Origin: a phage
Sequence record: PZ452595.1
DNA: 64,000 bases
Reading direction: 5' to 3' (one strand)
The position numbers were made by a program, and so were the translations under genes. Positions within the stretch are counted from its first letter, which is position 1. Every line of letters begins with the position of its first letter. Below, piece by piece: positions 278 through 63,370 of this stretch. The notes under the pieces were generated by a model. That model made no database searches. It saw nothing but the letters and a program-made list of their open reading frames with translations, and was not told where the DNA came from.

Positions 278-360
278 TTTATTCTCCTTTGTTTGTGTAA
301 GATAATACTATCACAAAGGAACCGTACTGTAAACAACTTTGTGCAATCTTTGGAAAATAA

Positions 361-383
361 AAAAGGACTCCCGAAGGAGTCCT
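361..383 (-). terminator. rho-independent terminator after the 30.9-like ORF
   Basis: Stem AGGACTCC / GGAGTCCT with UUCG loop (minus sense) followed by a U-run; same 23-nt element recurs at 53713..53739. Confidence 0.6.
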
Positions 384-387
384 CAAC

Positions 388-564
388 TTATGCTTTCTGC
401 TTACCAAAACGAGAAGCATCATCTCGAAGAACCGCACGTGCTCGGCGCATGATCTTCTCAACAGTTTGATTGATACGAGAGTTCGACCCACGCTTGTAAC
501 CAGCGCGTTTAGAATCACCAACTTTCTTTTCAACTGCTTTCTTTGCTTTAGCTTGTTTTGCCAT
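388..564 (-). CDS. small lysine-rich protein (T4 30.9-like)
   Basis: ATG at 564 gives MAKQAKAKKAVEKK... (58 aa, highly basic); the 72-aa track ORF extends to an upstream ATG at 606 without a clear SD; position immediately downstream of rIII. Confidence 0.5.
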   Translation of the reverse strand: MAKQAKAKKAVEKKVGDSKRAGYKRGSNSRINQTVEKIMRRARAVLRDDASRFGKQKA

Positions 565-16391: not shown

Positions 16392-16434
16392 ATTATTTTC
16401 CTCTTTAATTATCAGCAGTATTGCCGATAGTTTT

Positions 16435-16463
16435 ATAGTACCATGGAAGGACAAGGATGTAAA
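16435..16463 (-). promoter_or_regulatory. T4-type early promoter
   Basis: Minus sense GTTTACA, 17-nt spacer, TGG-TACTAT; immediately downstream of the gene 32 terminator. Confidence 0.55.
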
Positions 16464-16491
16464 CAGTTTTGCGAAAAATTTTTAAAATAAA

Positions 16492-16514
16492 AAAGGGGAC
16501 CCTAGAGGTCCCCA
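16492..16514 (-). terminator. rho-independent terminator after gene 32
   Basis: Stem GGGGACC / GGTCCCC with 5-nt loop, followed in minus sense by UUUUUAUUUU. Confidence 0.65.
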
Positions 16515-24803: not shown

Positions 24804-24808
24804 ATTGA

Positions 24809-24834
24809 GGGAGCCTTCGGGTTCCCTTTTTCTT
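24809..24834 (+). terminator. stem-loop with U-run after gene 35
   Basis: GGGAGCC-UUCG-GGUUCCC followed by UUUUUCUUU. Confidence 0.55.
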
Positions 24835-28842: not shown

Positions 28843-28847
28843 TAAGA

Positions 28848-28861
28848 GGGGCTTCGGCCCC
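28848..28861 (+). promoter_or_regulatory. intercistronic hairpin between genes 37 and 38
   Basis: GGGGC-UUCG-GCCCC immediately followed by the gene 38 SD GGAGG; no U-run. Confidence 0.4.
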
Positions 28862-28873
28862 TTGGAGGTTTAT

Positions 28874-33065: not shown

Positions 33066-33106
33066 TTTCTAATCTCCGTAATTCTGTATCAGTAGTTGAT
33101 AGTTGT

Positions 33107-33135
33107 ATAGTACCACAGTATGCTTTGGTTGTAAA
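33107..33135 (-). promoter_or_regulatory. T4-type early promoter upstream of motA
   Basis: Minus sense GTTTACA, 17-nt spacer, TGG-TACTAT, followed by the conserved CAACTACTGATAC leader. Confidence 0.6.
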
Positions 33136-33161
33136 CCGTTTTGTGAAAAATTTTTGAAATA

Positions 33162-33187
33162 AAAAAGGGAGAGCCGAGGCTCTCCCT
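33162..33187 (-). terminator. rho-independent terminator downstream of the 52 / motA.1 unit
   Basis: Stem GGGAGAGC / GCTCTCCC with 4-nt loop, then U-run in minus sense. Confidence 0.6.
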
Positions 33188-35127: not shown

Positions 35128-35214
35128 ATTTTCCTCACTGGCGTCCGAAGACGCCTTTGGTTTTAAGATTGTTACGATAGAACTGCATCACATGTTCGTT
35201 ATGGAAATTACTCA

Positions 35215-36368: not shown

Positions 36369-36396
36369 TTTCTGTTCCTCCGTAGTTGATAGGGTA

Positions 36397-36425
36397 ATAG
36401 TACCACGGAAGAACAGTCTTGTAAA
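36397..36425 (-). promoter_or_regulatory. T4-type early promoter
   Basis: Minus sense GTTTACA, 17-nt spacer, TGG-TACTAT; leader CTATCAACTACGGAGGAACAGAAA-ATG nearly identical to the one at 63208..63231. Confidence 0.55.
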
Positions 36426-36684
36426 CAACTTTTTAAAAATATTCGTAATAAATGTGAATACCAACTACTACCGCTGAAACTTGCACAACCCACCACGCAC
36501 AAGCAATAAGTACAGAATTCAAAATTTTCATAATAACCTCATTACAAAAGTAAATGTTAAACAAATTACTGGAATACTAATTAACCAAACAAAACACCAC
36601 CACAGTGAACTCATAGTTCAATCTCAGCGATTTTCATTTTATTCTCCAAATCCGTATCAGTAGTTGTCAGTAGTTGATAGTTGT

Positions 36685-36713
36685 ATAGTACCACGGTCCT
36701 TGTGGTATGTAAA
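36685..36713 (-). promoter_or_regulatory. T4-type early promoter downstream of denB
   Basis: Minus sense GTTTACA, 17-nt spacer, TGG-TACTAT; tandem duplication of CAGTAGTTG in the leader. Confidence 0.5.
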
Positions 36714-36729
36714 CCATTTTGTGAAATTT

Positions 36730-37287
36730 TTAAATGGAAAGATACCATCCGTTGTAGTTGCTTTTTCTTACAACCTTACGAAGGTCTTCTCTATCACCGA
36801 TGAACTTCGGAGTGTACTGGATGACACCTGGATGAATTTCTTTAGTGTTGAATATAATTATACAGTCAGCGACTTGATGATTTAGAATGGGCCCTAGATT
36901 TATTCCAGAACCGTATGGATACTCTCCGCTGCATCCTGTTGTTACAGAAATCCAACGTGAGTCAGTTTGATGTGTCTTAACTTCTACACGAAGCCCGCAG
37001 TATTTTGGATGCGCCAATACATCCCATGCATATGTGTACGGATCATCGACATCTTCTTGGCCTTTATTGACATATCCGCTTAGCCAATCTGCCACAAAAA
37101 ACTCTGCGTACACAGCGATACGGCATCTTTCGATAACTTCTGCCTTATCCTGATTTGGGTTCTGTTTTAAAGAGTATCTTGCAGTATCAGCAATTTTGAC
37201 CTTCATTTCACTAGTCAAGTCACTGTTCGATAGGGTAAATGTCGGAATCTGAAACAGTCTCTGTAAACCCGGATTCGTTTTCTGCAT
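36730..37287 (-). CDS. denB: endonuclease IV
   Basis: 185 aa, ATG start; same length and position (between rIIB and ndd) as T4 denB. Confidence 0.8.
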   Translation of the reverse strand: MQKTNPGLQRLFQIPTFTLSNSDLTSEMKVKIADTARYSLKQNPNQDKAEVIERCRIAVYAEFFVADWLSGYVNKGQEDVDDPYTYAWDVLAHPKYCGLRVEVKTHQTDSRWISVTTGCSGEYPYGSGINLGPILNHQVADCIIIFNTKEIHPGVIQYTPKFIGDREDLRKVVRKSNYNGWYLSI

Positions 37288-37344: not shown

Positions 37345-37366
37345 AAAACAAAAGGGCCGAAGCCCC
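37345..37366 (-). terminator. rho-independent terminator
   Basis: GGGC-UUCG-GCCC stem-loop followed by UUUUGUUUU in minus sense, between the 64-aa ORF and denB. Confidence 0.5.
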
Positions 37367-37371
37367 TTATT

Positions 37372-37566: not shown

Positions 37567-37594
37567 AATTTTCCTTAGTTAAGGGCCGAAGCCC

Positions 37595-38533
37595 TTATTT
37601 AAATTGTTCAGTAACGTCTTCAACTACTTCGTATTGGCAGGTACGCATTTTAGCATCGTTGTAATCAATCGGAATTGATACTACATCGCGAGGATGAACT
37701 TTAACTTTTACAACTCGGCTGGTTGAACTGCCAAAGTGACGAATATAAGATTTAGAACACACATGCAGACCACGAGAACAAGTTTGTGTATCATCGTCAT
37801 TCACACGAGTACGTGGCATTTTAACTACTTTACCCGGACTGTTATCAAAGGTATTTGAGTGACAGTCAAAGTAATTGCTACGAACTACTTTCCAAGCATA
37901 GAAGTAACCATCTTCTGTAATTTCAATATCGTTTGCTACCAAGAAATCAAAGAGTCGAGATACCGCTTTTTGGCTTGGGTTTTCCAGCAGATTTTCCAAG
38001 AACGGAAAATAAAATTCAAAGTTTTCGCCTTTTTCCATCGAGTCAAGAATACGATCAACCAAACCAGACCGCAATTCAATATTTTGATAGAACAAGCTTC
38101 CACCTTCAATTCGAACATCGCCGGAAATATATTTTTCAACAGCGCGACGAACATTAATTTTTTGTGCCGCTTCTTCCAACTTATCCGCTACAAGCAGATT
38201 AAGAATTTCCTGGAAGTTTGAATGAGTATTAGGAGTTGCATTATAAGTTACACCGTCAACAGTAATTGAAATGAATTTTTTAGATGCATTCCAAATAATG
38301 TCAGATTTAGCAACTGGAGCAATAACTGCATCGCTATTAACTTTAACTGTAATATCACCGCTAATAGTAACTTTAGGGCGTTTAGCTTCTTCAGCATTTT
38401 TCAAAACACGACGGATTGTGTCAACCGATACACCTTGCCAATCAGCCAATTCCTGTTGGGTGTAATTACCACTTGAATACAGTTTAACAATTTCAGCTTG
38501 TTCGTTTTTGGTCAGGCATTTAATATTGTACAT
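37595..38533 (-). CDS. rIIB: rIIB membrane-associated protein
   Basis: 312 aa, ATG start; same length as T4 rIIB; directly downstream of rIIA. Confidence 0.92.
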   Translation of the reverse strand: MYNIKCLTKNEQAEIVKLYSSGNYTQQELADWQGVSVDTIRRVLKNAEEAKRPKVTISGDITVKVNSDAVIAPVAKSDIIWNASKKFISITVDGVTYNATPNTHSNFQEILNLLVADKLEEAAQKINVRRAVEKYISGDVRIEGGSLFYQNIELRSGLVDRILDSMEKGENFEFYFPFLENLLENPSQKAVSRLFDFLVANDIEITEDGYFYAWKVVRSNYFDCHSNTFDNSPGKVVKMPRTRVNDDDTQTCSRGLHVCSKSYIRHFGSSTSRVVKVKVHPRDVVSIPIDYNDAKMRTCQYEVVEDVTEQFK

Positions 38534-44620: not shown

Positions 44621-44663
44621 TTTATTCTCCAAGTTATTTTCTGTATCAGTAGTTGATATTGAT

Positions 44664-44692
44664 ATAGTACCATAATCAACTACTGATGTATA
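44664..44692 (-). promoter_or_regulatory. variant early promoter
   Basis: TGG-TACTAT extended -10 with a weak -35 (TATACA); -10 sits inside a 13-nt perfect inverted repeat ATCAGTAGTTGAT / ATCAACTACTGAT. Confidence 0.4.
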
Positions 44693-44717
44693 TAGTTTTA
44701 TGAAAAAATTTTAAACT

Positions 44718-45209
44718 TTATGCATAGCGAGCTTTGCTGTAGTGTTTAATCCAACTTTCAGGAATGACTTTGTATGTTCCTAAAAATACCGCGTTGTATA
44801 ACTTAACGCCATCTTCTACCCATTGATCAGTAATGTATGCACACATGGCGCGAGTACGGTTAACAACCCCTTCCTCACCTTCAGTAAATTCAAACTCATA
44901 AGGAGCAACGAACTTAATAGCTTGACCGAGTTTCCACTTAAAGTCTACGCCTACATGCGAAGTATCAATCGTTTCAATTCCTTTAGCAGGAACAGCTTTT
45001 AAAAACGCAGACTCAAGAAATTTCGCACGAACATAGCCAAACTGAGGTTTAGACTTTCCATCTTTAGGAATGATACGCACTTTTACTTCAGAATCTTCAT
45101 CTTTAACACCGTGTTTAAGCTGAATGCTTACAACTTCAACCAATTTTCCTGCTGCTTTAGAACGGGATTTATCAGATACACGAGCAATTTCACCGATATT
45201 AATAATCAT
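44718..45209 (-). CDS. motB: MotB-like DNA-binding protein
   Basis: 163 aa, MIINIGEIARVSDKSRSKAAGK...; length and position between the cef-region ORFs and dexA match T4 MotB. Confidence 0.8.
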   Translation of the reverse strand: MIINIGEIARVSDKSRSKAAGKLVEVVSIQLKHGVKDEDSEVKVRIIPKDGKSKPQFGYVRAKFLESAFLKAVPAKGIETIDTSHVGVDFKWKLGQAIKFVAPYEFEFTEGEEGVVNRTRAMCAYITDQWVEDGVKLYNAVFLGTYKVIPESWIKHYSKARYA

Positions 45210-53647: not shown

Positions 53648-53712
53648 AGTACTCTCCTCTATAAGATAATTCTATTATACCATACTCATTTTGGAAAGTA
53701 AACCGTTTAAAT

Positions 53713-53739
53713 GAAAAAAAGGACTCCCGAAGGAGTCCT
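53713..53739 (-). terminator. rho-independent terminator after soc
   Basis: AGGACUCC-UUCG-GGAGUCCU followed by UUUUUUU in minus sense; identical to the element at 361..383. Confidence 0.65.
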
Positions 53740-53744
53740 TGAAT

Positions 53745-53990
53745 TTATTCACCAGTTACTTTCCACAAATCTTCATTTGCAGCAATCCATTCAGTACGTT
53801 GATTTTCTTCATATACTGTAGAATATGCTGCTTTTTCTGAAGGGAATGTCTGGTAATGAGCACCAGAAATTTTGTGAACGTCAGAGTAAAGAGGGAAAGC
53901 TACGGAAATTTCCTTTCCTTCAATTTTCTTATTTCCATCTAATTTCTGCTCAAATGTTTTAATATTAACATAACCGCGAGTACTAGCCAT
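53745..53990 (-). CDS. soc: small outer capsid protein Soc
   Basis: 81 aa, MASTRGYVNIKTFEQKLDGNKKIEG...; late promoter TATAAATA upstream. Confidence 0.9.
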   Translation of the reverse strand: MASTRGYVNIKTFEQKLDGNKKIEGKEISVAFPLYSDVHKISGAHYQTFPSEKAAYSTVYEENQRTEWIAANEDLWKVTGE

Positions 53991-54020
53991 GTAATTCTCC
54001 TTTTATTTAAATTACATGAT

Positions 54021-54028
54021 TATTTATA
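54021..54028 (-). promoter_or_regulatory. late promoter for soc
   Basis: Minus sense TATAAATA about 30 nt upstream of the soc ATG. Confidence 0.55.
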
Positions 54029-54073
54029 ATAAATTCTCGCGGCTTTTAAGTCGTCGTTTAAATAAACGAGCTA

Positions 54074-54592
54074 TTAATAGCCTCGATCTTGACGTGCGAA
54101 ATTTTCGGCATTTTTCAGATAATAAAGTTTAAAGATTTCCTCAGCTGACATTCCAAGAGCAATAAATTTATTCATAAAAAAGTGAAATTGGTCAATCAGT
54201 TCAAATTTAATTTCAAGCTGATCTTCAGGAGATAAGTCTTGAATTTTCTTGGATTGCATTTCAGAATAACGTTTCTTCCAAGGTTTCCATACGGCAGAAG
54301 CTTCTTTTTCACCATTACTCATACCACCAAGAGAAGTATATAGCTCGCGAGTTTCATCTGCGATATAATCGTCTTGGTTTCGCAGCCAAGCAAGAACTTC
54401 TCCTGCGGTTTCAAGTGAATCAGGATGACGATTTGTTTCTGGCTTATCATTAGCCAAACGAATCTGTAAAGACCGCTGCATATCAAGCATAACCTGCAAT
54501 GGGTCTTTTTCATCACCGAGAATATCCCAGTATTCATTTTGAGCTTTATCAACACCTTCGATCAAATGAGCGCATTCATTAAAGTGAGCCAT
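54074..54592 (-). CDS. 56: dCTP pyrophosphatase gp56
   Basis: ATG at 54592 gives MAHFNECAHLIEGVDKAQNEYWDILGDE... (172 aa, MazG-like); the track frame has a hydrophobic N-terminal extension. Confidence 0.88.
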   Translation of the reverse strand: MAHFNECAHLIEGVDKAQNEYWDILGDEKDPLQVMLDMQRSLQIRLANDKPETNRHPDSLETAGEVLAWLRNQDDYIADETRELYTSLGGMSNGEKEASAVWKPWKKRYSEMQSKKIQDLSPEDQLEIKFELIDQFHFFMNKFIALGMSAEEIFKLYYLKNAENFARQDRGY

Positions 54593-54626
54593 TATTTTTC
54601 CTTTCAATTCATGGGTTAGTAGATTA

Positions 54627-54650
54627 ATTATACAATAAATATATAAAGCA
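54627..54650 (-). promoter_or_regulatory. MotA-dependent middle promoter for gene 56
   Basis: Minus sense tTGCTTtA (MotA box), 11-nt spacer, TATAAT. Confidence 0.55.
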
Positions 54651-54663
54651 ATAAGGAGGACAT

Positions 54664-54864
54664 ATGGTACAAAAATTAATGGCACTTGTTGATGCCATAA
54701 AAGGTAATAAGAAACGTATAGCTTTTACTATTTCTGCTATGGTAGGAATTTTACTCTGGAACTTTATTCTATCACCTGTTGCGATTGCACATGGTATTAA
54801 TATTCCAGTAGTTACTCTTGATACATTCGTAGATTTAGCATTTGCTTTAGTTGGGTTAATTTAA
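54664..54864 (+). CDS. small two-helix membrane protein, divergent from gene 56
   Basis: 66 aa plus-strand ORF (MVQKLMALVDAIKGNKKRIAFTISAMVGILLWNFIL...); AAGGAGGA 5 nt upstream of ATG; stop overlaps the gene 61 stop convergently. Confidence 0.4.
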   Translation: MVQKLMALVDAIKGNKKRIAFTISAMVGILLWNFILSPVAIAHGINIPVVTLDTFVDLAFALVGLI

Positions 54865-63207: not shown

Positions 63208-63235
63208 TTTGTGTTCCTCCGTAGTTGATAGTTGT

Positions 63236-63264
63236 ATAGTACCACAGAGGAACAGTCTTGTAAA
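63236..63264 (-). promoter_or_regulatory. T4-type early promoter
   Basis: Minus sense GTTTACA, 17-nt spacer, TGG-TACTAT; leader matches the one at 36397..36425. Confidence 0.55.
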
Positions 63265-63348
63265 CAGTTTTGTGAAAAAATTTTTAGGGAATTCTAAAGG
63301 TCCAGAATCATCTGTTTTTCATAAGTATAGATTTATATTACTTGTATG

Positions 63349-63370
63349 AAAAAGGGACCCGGAGGTCCCT
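63349..63370 (-). terminator. rho-independent terminator after gene 43
   Basis: GGGACC-UCCG-GGUCCC followed by UUUUUC in minus sense, directly after the gp43 stop. Confidence 0.6.

Follow-up and report, generated by a model that had tools for sequence, protein, structure and literature searches.

The 64,000-nucleotide stretch of phage DNA analysed here (sequence record PZ452595.1, hereafter the window) contains the same 23-nt element, AAAAGGACTCCCGAAGGAGTCCT on the plus strand, at positions 361-383 and again at 53717-53739. This raises two questions, namely what the element does and how two sites more than 53 kb apart came to hold it in identical form. A sequence-only reading of the window had described the pair as a terminator lying directly downstream of minus-strand stop codons, one copy after a 30.9-like open reading frame and the other after soc. 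The search bore out the identity of the copies and the distance between them, and the gene names proved correct, with 30.9 and soc annotated at the corresponding places in T4 (NC_000866). The repeat is real and, judging from the sequence of both sites, very probably functions as a transcription stop signal. It is considered highly likely that both copies are Rho-independent terminators of the minus strand, each heading a cassette that joins a terminator to an early promoter.

Extent and Genomic Setting of the Repeat

The exact identity of the two copies exceeds the 23-mer by 2 nt (two A residues) on its left side and ends there, giving a repeat of 25 nt (Table 1). Alignment of the flanks of the two copies revealed no similarity past these 25 nt except for A/T tracts. 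The sequence-only reading had proposed a search for the 23-mer and its variants as a check, and this returned only the two copies in the window, with none other at up to 3 mismatches. Similarly, 100 dinucleotide-preserving shuffles of the window gave 0 matches to the 23-mer. The shuffles rule out base coincidence as the source of the repeat, but they are the wrong null for the proposition that one copy derives from the other. Given that two UUCG-capped terminators with A and T runs need agree at only a few free stem pairs, an expectation of zero overstates the surprise.

Regions of the window are 96-99.8% identical to Tequatrovirus genomes, and the window is itself from a Tequatrovirus. Over its first 1.5 kb it shares 99.8% identity with a T4 variant, and in the soc region its identity to T4-like phages of Shigella and Escherichia reaches 98.9%. 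From the T4 30.x/rIII region, the window passes through the conventional map origin and extends to the soc/56 region; because it crosses that origin, the two sites, which are 115 kb apart on the T4 map, are separated here by only 53 kb. Gene 56 (54074-54685) and soc are separated in the window by only ∼83 nt (53991-54073), a gap that holds the sequence TATAAATA. In T4, the GIY-YIG homing endonuclease gene segF (675 bp) lies between 56 and soc, and the short gap therefore identifies the phage of the window as one without segF and not as T4 itself. At the other site, the spacer between rIII and 30.9 (565-852, ∼290 nt) contains no T4-annotated gene, and one related record starts 30.9 at an ATG at 606. 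The spacer, which includes a GC-rich segment at ∼588-628, shows poor sequence conservation among more distant relatives, whereas conservation of 30.9 itself exceeds that of its neighbours.

Table 1. Positions of the repeat, the hairpins and the flanking signals and genes in the window
Feature	Position	Strand	Basis
Exact 25-nt repeat, copy 1	359..383	.	sequence search
Exact 25-nt repeat, copy 2	53715..53739	.	sequence search
Predicted terminator hairpin 1: GAGGACUCC-UUCG-GGAGUCCUU, 9 pairs including a terminal G-U	363..384	-	scans, fold
Predicted terminator hairpin 2: AAGGACUCC-UUCG-GGAGUCCUU, 9 pairs	53719..53740	-	scan, fold
U-tract 1: UUUUUUAU in RNA (U6 after the stem)	357..364	-	read from sequence
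U-tract 2: U7	53714..53720	-	read from sequence
Gene 30.9, 58 aa, stop 388-390	388..564	-	ORF; T4 and RB68 annotation
soc, small outer capsid protein, 81 aa, stop 53745-53747	53745..53990	-	ORF; T4 annotation
Early-promoter match 1: -35 TTTACA (333-328), 17-nt spacer, -10 TAGTAT (310-305)	305..333	-	sequence; T4 regex match
SD AAGGAG (289-284), then gene 30.8 ATG (276-274)	downstream of promoter match 1	-	read from sequence
Early-promoter match 2: -35 TTTACT (53702-53697), 17-nt spacer, -10 TATAAT (53679-53674)	53674..53702	-	sequence; T4 regex match
SD GAGGAG (53659-53654), then mrh.2 ATG (53647-53645)	downstream of promoter match 2	-	read from sequence
T4 late-promoter consensus TATAAATA, upstream of soc	54021..54028	-	read from sequence

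Anatomy and Folding of the Hairpins

Read on the minus strand, the element takes the summary form AGGACUCC-UUCG-GGAGUCCU followed by U6-7. The minus strand is the coding strand of both 30.9 and soc, and there the element can be written for the two sites together as (G/A)AGGACUCC-UUCG-GGAGUCCUU, again followed by U6-7. At both sites the UUCG loop is closed by a C-G pair (...CUCC-UUCG-GGAG...), and the first two U residues of each U-tract are also paired at the base of the stem. Hairpin 1 starts at position 384, 3 nt past the stop codon of 30.9, and hairpin 2 at 53740, 4 nt past that of soc, in agreement with the placement directly after minus-strand stops that had been reported. Given that no T tract follows the stem on the opposite strand, the signal is one-directional.

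Folded alone, hairpins 1 and 2 had energies of -14.9 and -14.5 kcal/mol, respectively, both computed on the identical T4 copies. When placed in a 61-nt context, the minimum free energies were -18.8 kcal/mol for hairpin 1 and -18.9 kcal/mol for hairpin 2, and the two contexts lay well below their shuffles (z = -3.1 and -3.5). A simple terminator scan also picked up the element. A search of the window against Rfam at gathering thresholds gave no family match, and a permissive search returned only sub-threshold matches, to the terminator ends of unrelated models.

The sequence features expected of an intrinsic terminator were thus found together, namely a stable GC-rich stem-loop, an adjacent U-tract, a sense position after a stop codon and covariation. 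Terminators of T4 are described in the literature as a GC-rich stem with a 4-nt loop and poly(U), and the two hairpins resemble the intrinsic terminators of E. coli and T4 in their GC-rich stem, 4-nt loop, U-tract and place after the stop. Nothing material sets them apart from these terminators, the sole oddity being the 25-nt identity of two such elements at a distance of 53 kb. Elements of this type are known already, and both sites are already annotated as ‘terminator’ in sister genomes, site 1 in phage e11/2 (KJ668714) and site 2, by ARNOLD, in MK327928. The earlier assignment of the element as a terminator is therefore well supported by the stem, UUCG loop and U6-7 after stop codons, by compensatory changes in relatives, and by the GenBank annotation. 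The 3′ end of soc mRNA was reportedly examined experimentally by Yonesaki in 2002. As summarized in PMC3972237, in a passage that cites Tuerk et al. 1988, C(UUCG)G hairpins came to notice first in the intercistronic regions of T4. The present hairpins share with these the UUCG loop, the C-G closure, the T4-type intergenic place and the association with termination, and show no difference in kind.

Other strong terminator-like hairpins were observed in the window at 24807-24828 (+), 16495-16513 (-), 33166-33187 (-) and 37351-37368 (-), and further ones at 37580-37597, 28847-28862, 35140-35155 and 63353-63370 (-). In most of them, a UUCG, CUCG, UCCG or CGAA tetraloop goes with a purine-rich 5′ arm of the type (A)GGGA..CC; none has the stem of the repeated 23-mer.

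Conservation of the Hairpins in T4 and Its Relatives

In T4 (NC_000866), the identical hairpin follows both 30.9 and soc. In the whole T4 genome (168.9 kb), the 18-nt core, GGACTCCTTCGGGAGTCC, occurs exactly twice, with no variant of it at up to 3 mismatches; the nearest T4 variant, AGTCTCC-TTCG-GGAGACT, lies after rI.-1. An apparent single copy in RB68 and RB3 was traced to an effect of BLAST reporting, and RB3 has the identical hairpin after soc. As a short GC-rich intergenic palindrome the element recalls REP/BIME- or MITE-like repeats, from which it differs in its strand-specific U tail, its fixed place after stop codons, the absence of conserved flanks and the presence of only two copies in T4. 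A dispersed repeat or mobile element of this type was rejected on the basis of the copy number in T4, where no further copy lies within 3 mismatches, and the end of the identity at 25 nt.

Conservation beyond T4 was assessed in 38 IMG/VR loci sampled through the soc protein (to 47% amino acid identity) and the gp30.9 protein (to 56% amino acid identity). Each of the 38 orthologous sites had a perfect hairpin with a T tail in the corresponding position, and 16 forms of it could be told apart. Most common was the GGACTCC/GGAGTCC stem, present at 17 of 25 sites after 30.9 and 7 of 13 after soc. The alternative stems among these loci were GGAATCC/GGATTCC, GGAACC/GGTTCC, GGGAGAC/GTCTCCC, GGGAACC/GGTTCCC and GGGCTCC/GGAGCCC. 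The loops also varied among relatives and included UUCG, UACG, AUAU, UAUG, UUCA, pentaloops and, at the 30.9 site, a flipped CGAA. Given that the hairpin is kept despite such loop drift or a flip to CGAA, the UUCG loop is not indispensable.

In an alignment of 20 distinct forms, 96.7% of cells were paired, with both sides changed in 6 of the 9 pairs. None of 500 shuffles reached the observed pairing values, and slid registers fell to 42-61% paired. The compensatory changes, together with the perfect hairpins, indicate selection on RNA structure and not on primary sequence, as a terminator predicts. The anatomy, conservation and covariation of the hairpins are in this respect direct observations.

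In two loci, L041 (30.9 site) and L096 (contig 2706796299), the same stem carries a CGAA loop in the sense strand in place of UUCG. This difference occurs even between closely related contigs, as found on comparison with L091 and L124 (contigs 2974556567 and 2974573174), and looks as if the arms of the hairpin had recombined and flipped the loop. In contigs 2974742932, 2974606504 and 2706796756, the hairpin at one site differs from that at the other. Concerted evolution of the two sites as a rule was rejected, given that the hairpins differ between the sites in several relatives.

Probable Terminator and Early-Promoter Cassettes

Past each hairpin, the sequence carries an early-promoter match of the T4 type, and behind this come a Shine-Dalgarno sequence and the ATG that opens the following gene (Table 1). 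At site 1, the -10 element has one mismatch to the published TAYWAT consensus. A sigma-70-like consensus scan of the first 20 kb detected 74 sites, compared with 80 ± 10 in shuffles; as this is no excess, the promoter calls rest on the T4-specific extended consensus and on a repeat family. Promoter match 1 falls inside this family, D1, a 7-copy, 72-nt early-promoter repeat of the window.

The D1 copies lie at 296-367, 16426-16497, 33098-33169, 36388-36459, 36676-36747, 44655-44726 and 63227-63298. They are ∼72 nt long and 61-82% identical to the reference copy, and consist of a minus-strand -10, spacer, -35 and upstream A/T tract. The family is the T4 early-promoter family, and the copies at 296, 16426 and 33098 directly adjoin terminator hairpins.

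The following mechanism is proposed for the two sites. As RNA polymerase completes 30.9 or soc, the nascent RNA would fold into a stem of 9 bp, closed by a very stable C(UUCG)G cap, and the U6-7 tract would then weaken the RNA-DNA hybrid, such that the transcript is released. The hairpin remaining at the 3′ end of the mRNA should shield it against 3′ exonucleases. The predicted cassette runs from the hairpin and U-tract through an A/T-rich spacer to the -35 (TTTACW), 17 nt, the -10, the Shine-Dalgarno sequence and the ATG of 30.8 or mrh.2, and would close one transcription unit and open the next. Termination, promoter activity and mRNA protection are expected here from the established rules for terminators and promoters. 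On this reading, the 30.9 and soc transcription units would stop, and those of 30.8 and mrh.2 begin, at these sites, which aids operon maps of T4-like phages. The late-promoter sequence upstream of soc conforms to the established T4 consensus, and together with terminator 2 it would bound a short late soc transcript of ∼300 nt.

The same hairpins could instead act post-transcriptionally, as a 3′ exonuclease barrier or a processing signal that is mostly read through, a role that is compatible with termination. Stable 3′ hairpins protect mRNAs, long read-through transcripts are known from T4 early regions, and the promoter right after each hairpin means that the downstream genes would be expressed either way. 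Nonetheless, an unbroken U6-7 adjoining the stem characterizes termination and would be superfluous in a mere stability element, and the retention of the T tail at every one of the 38 orthologous sites makes this alternative improbable.

A DNA-level or protein-recognition element, be it a cruciform or recombination site, a homing-endonuclease target or a site for the RegB RNase, is considered most improbable: the inverted repeat, the GGAG of the 3′ arm (the RegB core motif) and the speculation on protein binding to stems voiced in one part of Arbiol et al. (PMC2839356) are outweighed by compensatory stem changes with a free primary sequence, which favour RNA structure over a sequence-specific site, and by the strand-specific U tail and place after stops that such an element leaves unexplained. 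GGAG is not cleaved by RegB when it lies within a secondary structure, and strong RegB sites require A-rich sequence on the 3′ side (GGAGRAYARAA). Here, the motif is base-paired and the A-rich 3′ context is absent, and a RegB target was rejected.

Comparison with PeSL Cassettes

The layout in which both hairpins are best read as terminators resembles the promoter-early stem-loop (PeSL) cassettes of T4-type phages, as these are introduced in Arbiol et al. 2010 (PMC2839356) and Comeau et al. 2014 (PMC4122927). For the T4/PST pair, the relevant section of Comeau et al. 2014 (PMC4122927) gives stems of the form ‘AGNA-loop-TCNT’ and promoters of the form TTTACW-N17-TAYWAT. The soc and 30.9 sites match the published layout in their sequence features, with the same order of a stem-loop terminator, an A/T-rich spacer, a sigma-70-like early promoter, a Shine-Dalgarno sequence and an ATG. 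A stem of the T4/PST type is present at the sites, and the promoter form is exact at site 2 and has one mismatch at site 1. The likeness may extend to mosaic junctions at the cassette and to an association with variable open reading frames; homology breaks at the hairpin in three loci (L010, L013 and L023), and the neighbours are small accessory open reading frames. A coincidence of terminator/promoter cassettes with mosaic junctions in T4-like genomes would agree with the published PeSL model.

Two differences were apparent. The PeSL papers stress the conserved promoter parts as the substrate of recombination, whereas the promoters of the soc/30.9 pair differ and only the hairpin is identical. 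Furthermore, essential genes lie between the two copies, which are 53 kb apart, and excision of a mini-circle between them would be lethal.

Copying or Convergence of the Identical Stems

The sequence-only reading had attributed the exact reuse of the element to copying by recombination or to strong selection for this stem. Copying is plausible in view of mosaic cassettes, homology that breaks at the hairpin, and a second allele at three sites. Stem-specific selection found no support, given that relatives have other perfectly paired stems and that GGACTCC is no commoner than its sister stems among the matches listed. A third option, absent from that reading, is convergence within a small design space followed by slow evolution of the stem. 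For the soc/30.9 pair, copying and convergence are judged about evenly balanced.

Copying would mean that one hairpin was transferred to the other site, or both from a third, by short-homology recombination or gene conversion among cassettes, along a route of PeSL-type modular shuffling in the T4-like gene pool. Such an origin is possible but falls somewhat short of probable. PeSL-mediated exchange is published, and the cassettes of T4 are mosaic: the soc cassette has the hairpin of 30.9, whereas in U-tract, spacer and -35 region it most resembles the rI.-1|mobD.5 cassette (66/90 identity). The nrdC.11, 32 and motA.1 cassettes of T4 present the converse of the soc/30.9 pair, with near-identical promoters (72-77 of ∼90) and different hairpins, which points to mosaic cassettes. 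Homology in relatives behaves in the same manner. In L010, identity is 58.7% in the soc coding sequence and 92-97% once the hairpin is reached; in L013, the hairpin forms an isolated block of 26 nt at 100% identity; and several 30.9 alignments stop at the hairpin. Furthermore, a second allele, GGGAACC-YTWGT-GGTTCCC, whose pentaloop has nothing remarkable about it, was found at three IMG/VR sites in T4-like contigs, after 30.9, after soc and after a third gene, and outside T4-like contigs it gave a single match in IMG/VR, which had no T tail.

The cassettes of nrdC.11, gene 32 and motA.1 lie on the minus strand of T4 NC_000866 at ∼55433, 146925 and 163725. The U-tracts and spacers of these cassettes are also near-identical, and the window regions given with them are 16426-16513 and 33098-33187.

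Copying is also favoured by the frequency of the stem within the T4-like lineage. In several T4-like genomes, 2-3 different sites hold a GGACTCC hairpin, and across T4-like genera the same 18-mer follows eight genes (30.9, soc, 60, hoc, 56, 8, 23 and a segF-like gene); T4 itself has other stems after genes 8 and 23. The weight of this evidence is reduced by the nature of the shared sequence, since all 25 identical nt belong to the functional terminator (A-run, stem, loop and stem) and no hitch-hiking flank marks a copy. The two sites often differ within one genome, which argues against ongoing concerted evolution. In the pertinent passages of PMC2839356, moreover, the PeSL crossovers described lie in the promoter part and not around the hairpin, and the homology cited for T4 recombination is ∼50 bp, which exceeds the 25 nt shared here.

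Convergence is held to be just as credible as copying. Here, the two sites would have arrived independently at the same stem, there being few ways to build a strong UUCG-capped terminator of short length in an AT-rich genome, and the stems would then persist because a change of stem needs two matched mutations. The exact 18-mer was found in 105 stretches of the viral collection and in at least 120 bacterial stretches from many phyla, against a rough uniform-composition expectation of ∼1 viral (for a collection estimated at ∼40 Gb) and ∼17 bacterial. A T-rich tail was present at 103 of 109 viral occurrences and, among the matches listed, at 97 of 123 bacterial ones. Many of the viral occurrences sit in contigs unrelated to T4, with unrelated flanks. 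The identical 18-mer has therefore arisen many times in unrelated phages and bacteria, which speaks for convergence and illustrates the small design space of strong terminators.

A control scan for the pattern GGANNCC-TTCG-GGNNTCC-TTT allowed this design space to be gauged. Among the matches listed, 121 of 122 hairpins were properly paired, and the CT/AG stem (17) was no commoner than GA/TC (19) or GT/AC (16). The probability that two random hairpins of the GGAnnCC-UUCG-GGnnUCC-UUU design share the same middle pairs was ∼0.10 among the matches listed. Given that T4 has ∼8 strong UUCG- or CGAA-looped hairpins, an identical pair is not very improbable (rough estimate, 5-30%). Slow stem evolution also predicts the behaviour of the 30.9 site, which keeps its stem while the loop drifts among UUCG, UACG, AUAU, UAUG and UUCA. 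Set against convergence are the pentaloop allele, the three sites of which in T4-like contigs are hard to fit with independent origins, and the over-representation of one stem in several T4-like genera, which points to copying.

Special selection for GGACTCC was unsupported, this stem being no commoner than GGAGACC or GGAGTCC among the matches listed. The GGACTCC stem is thus not special globally; within the T4-like lineage it is a favourite. A 30-nt query of the phage collection matched 1217 records, chiefly from T4-like phages that infect enterobacteria, Aeromonas or Vibrio; the query is symmetric and matches both strands, so that the places per record convey breadth only and not a clean copy count.

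A more general proposal, which we advance tentatively and regard as rather unlikely, is that the terminator hairpins of T4-like phages are ‘alleles’ exchanged between sites independently of promoter and gene, via very short homology in the A/U-tract and stem. If true, the soc/30.9 pair, the three-site GGGAACC-YTWGT-GGTTCCC hairpin and the GGACTCC-UUCG hairpins behind at least eight genes across genera would all be products of such exchange. Hairpin-mediated exchange would then extend the PeSL model beyond promoter-mediated exchange, as a modest refinement.

Two identical 18-mer hairpins were also observed a few hundred bases apart in unrelated contigs, including a spacing of 213 bp in L047 and L118 (IMG/VR marine), and a nearby doubled 18-mer occurs in three bacterial MAG contigs (L290, L307 and L310). 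Reuse of a terminator hairpin at short distance is thus found outside T4-like phages as well.
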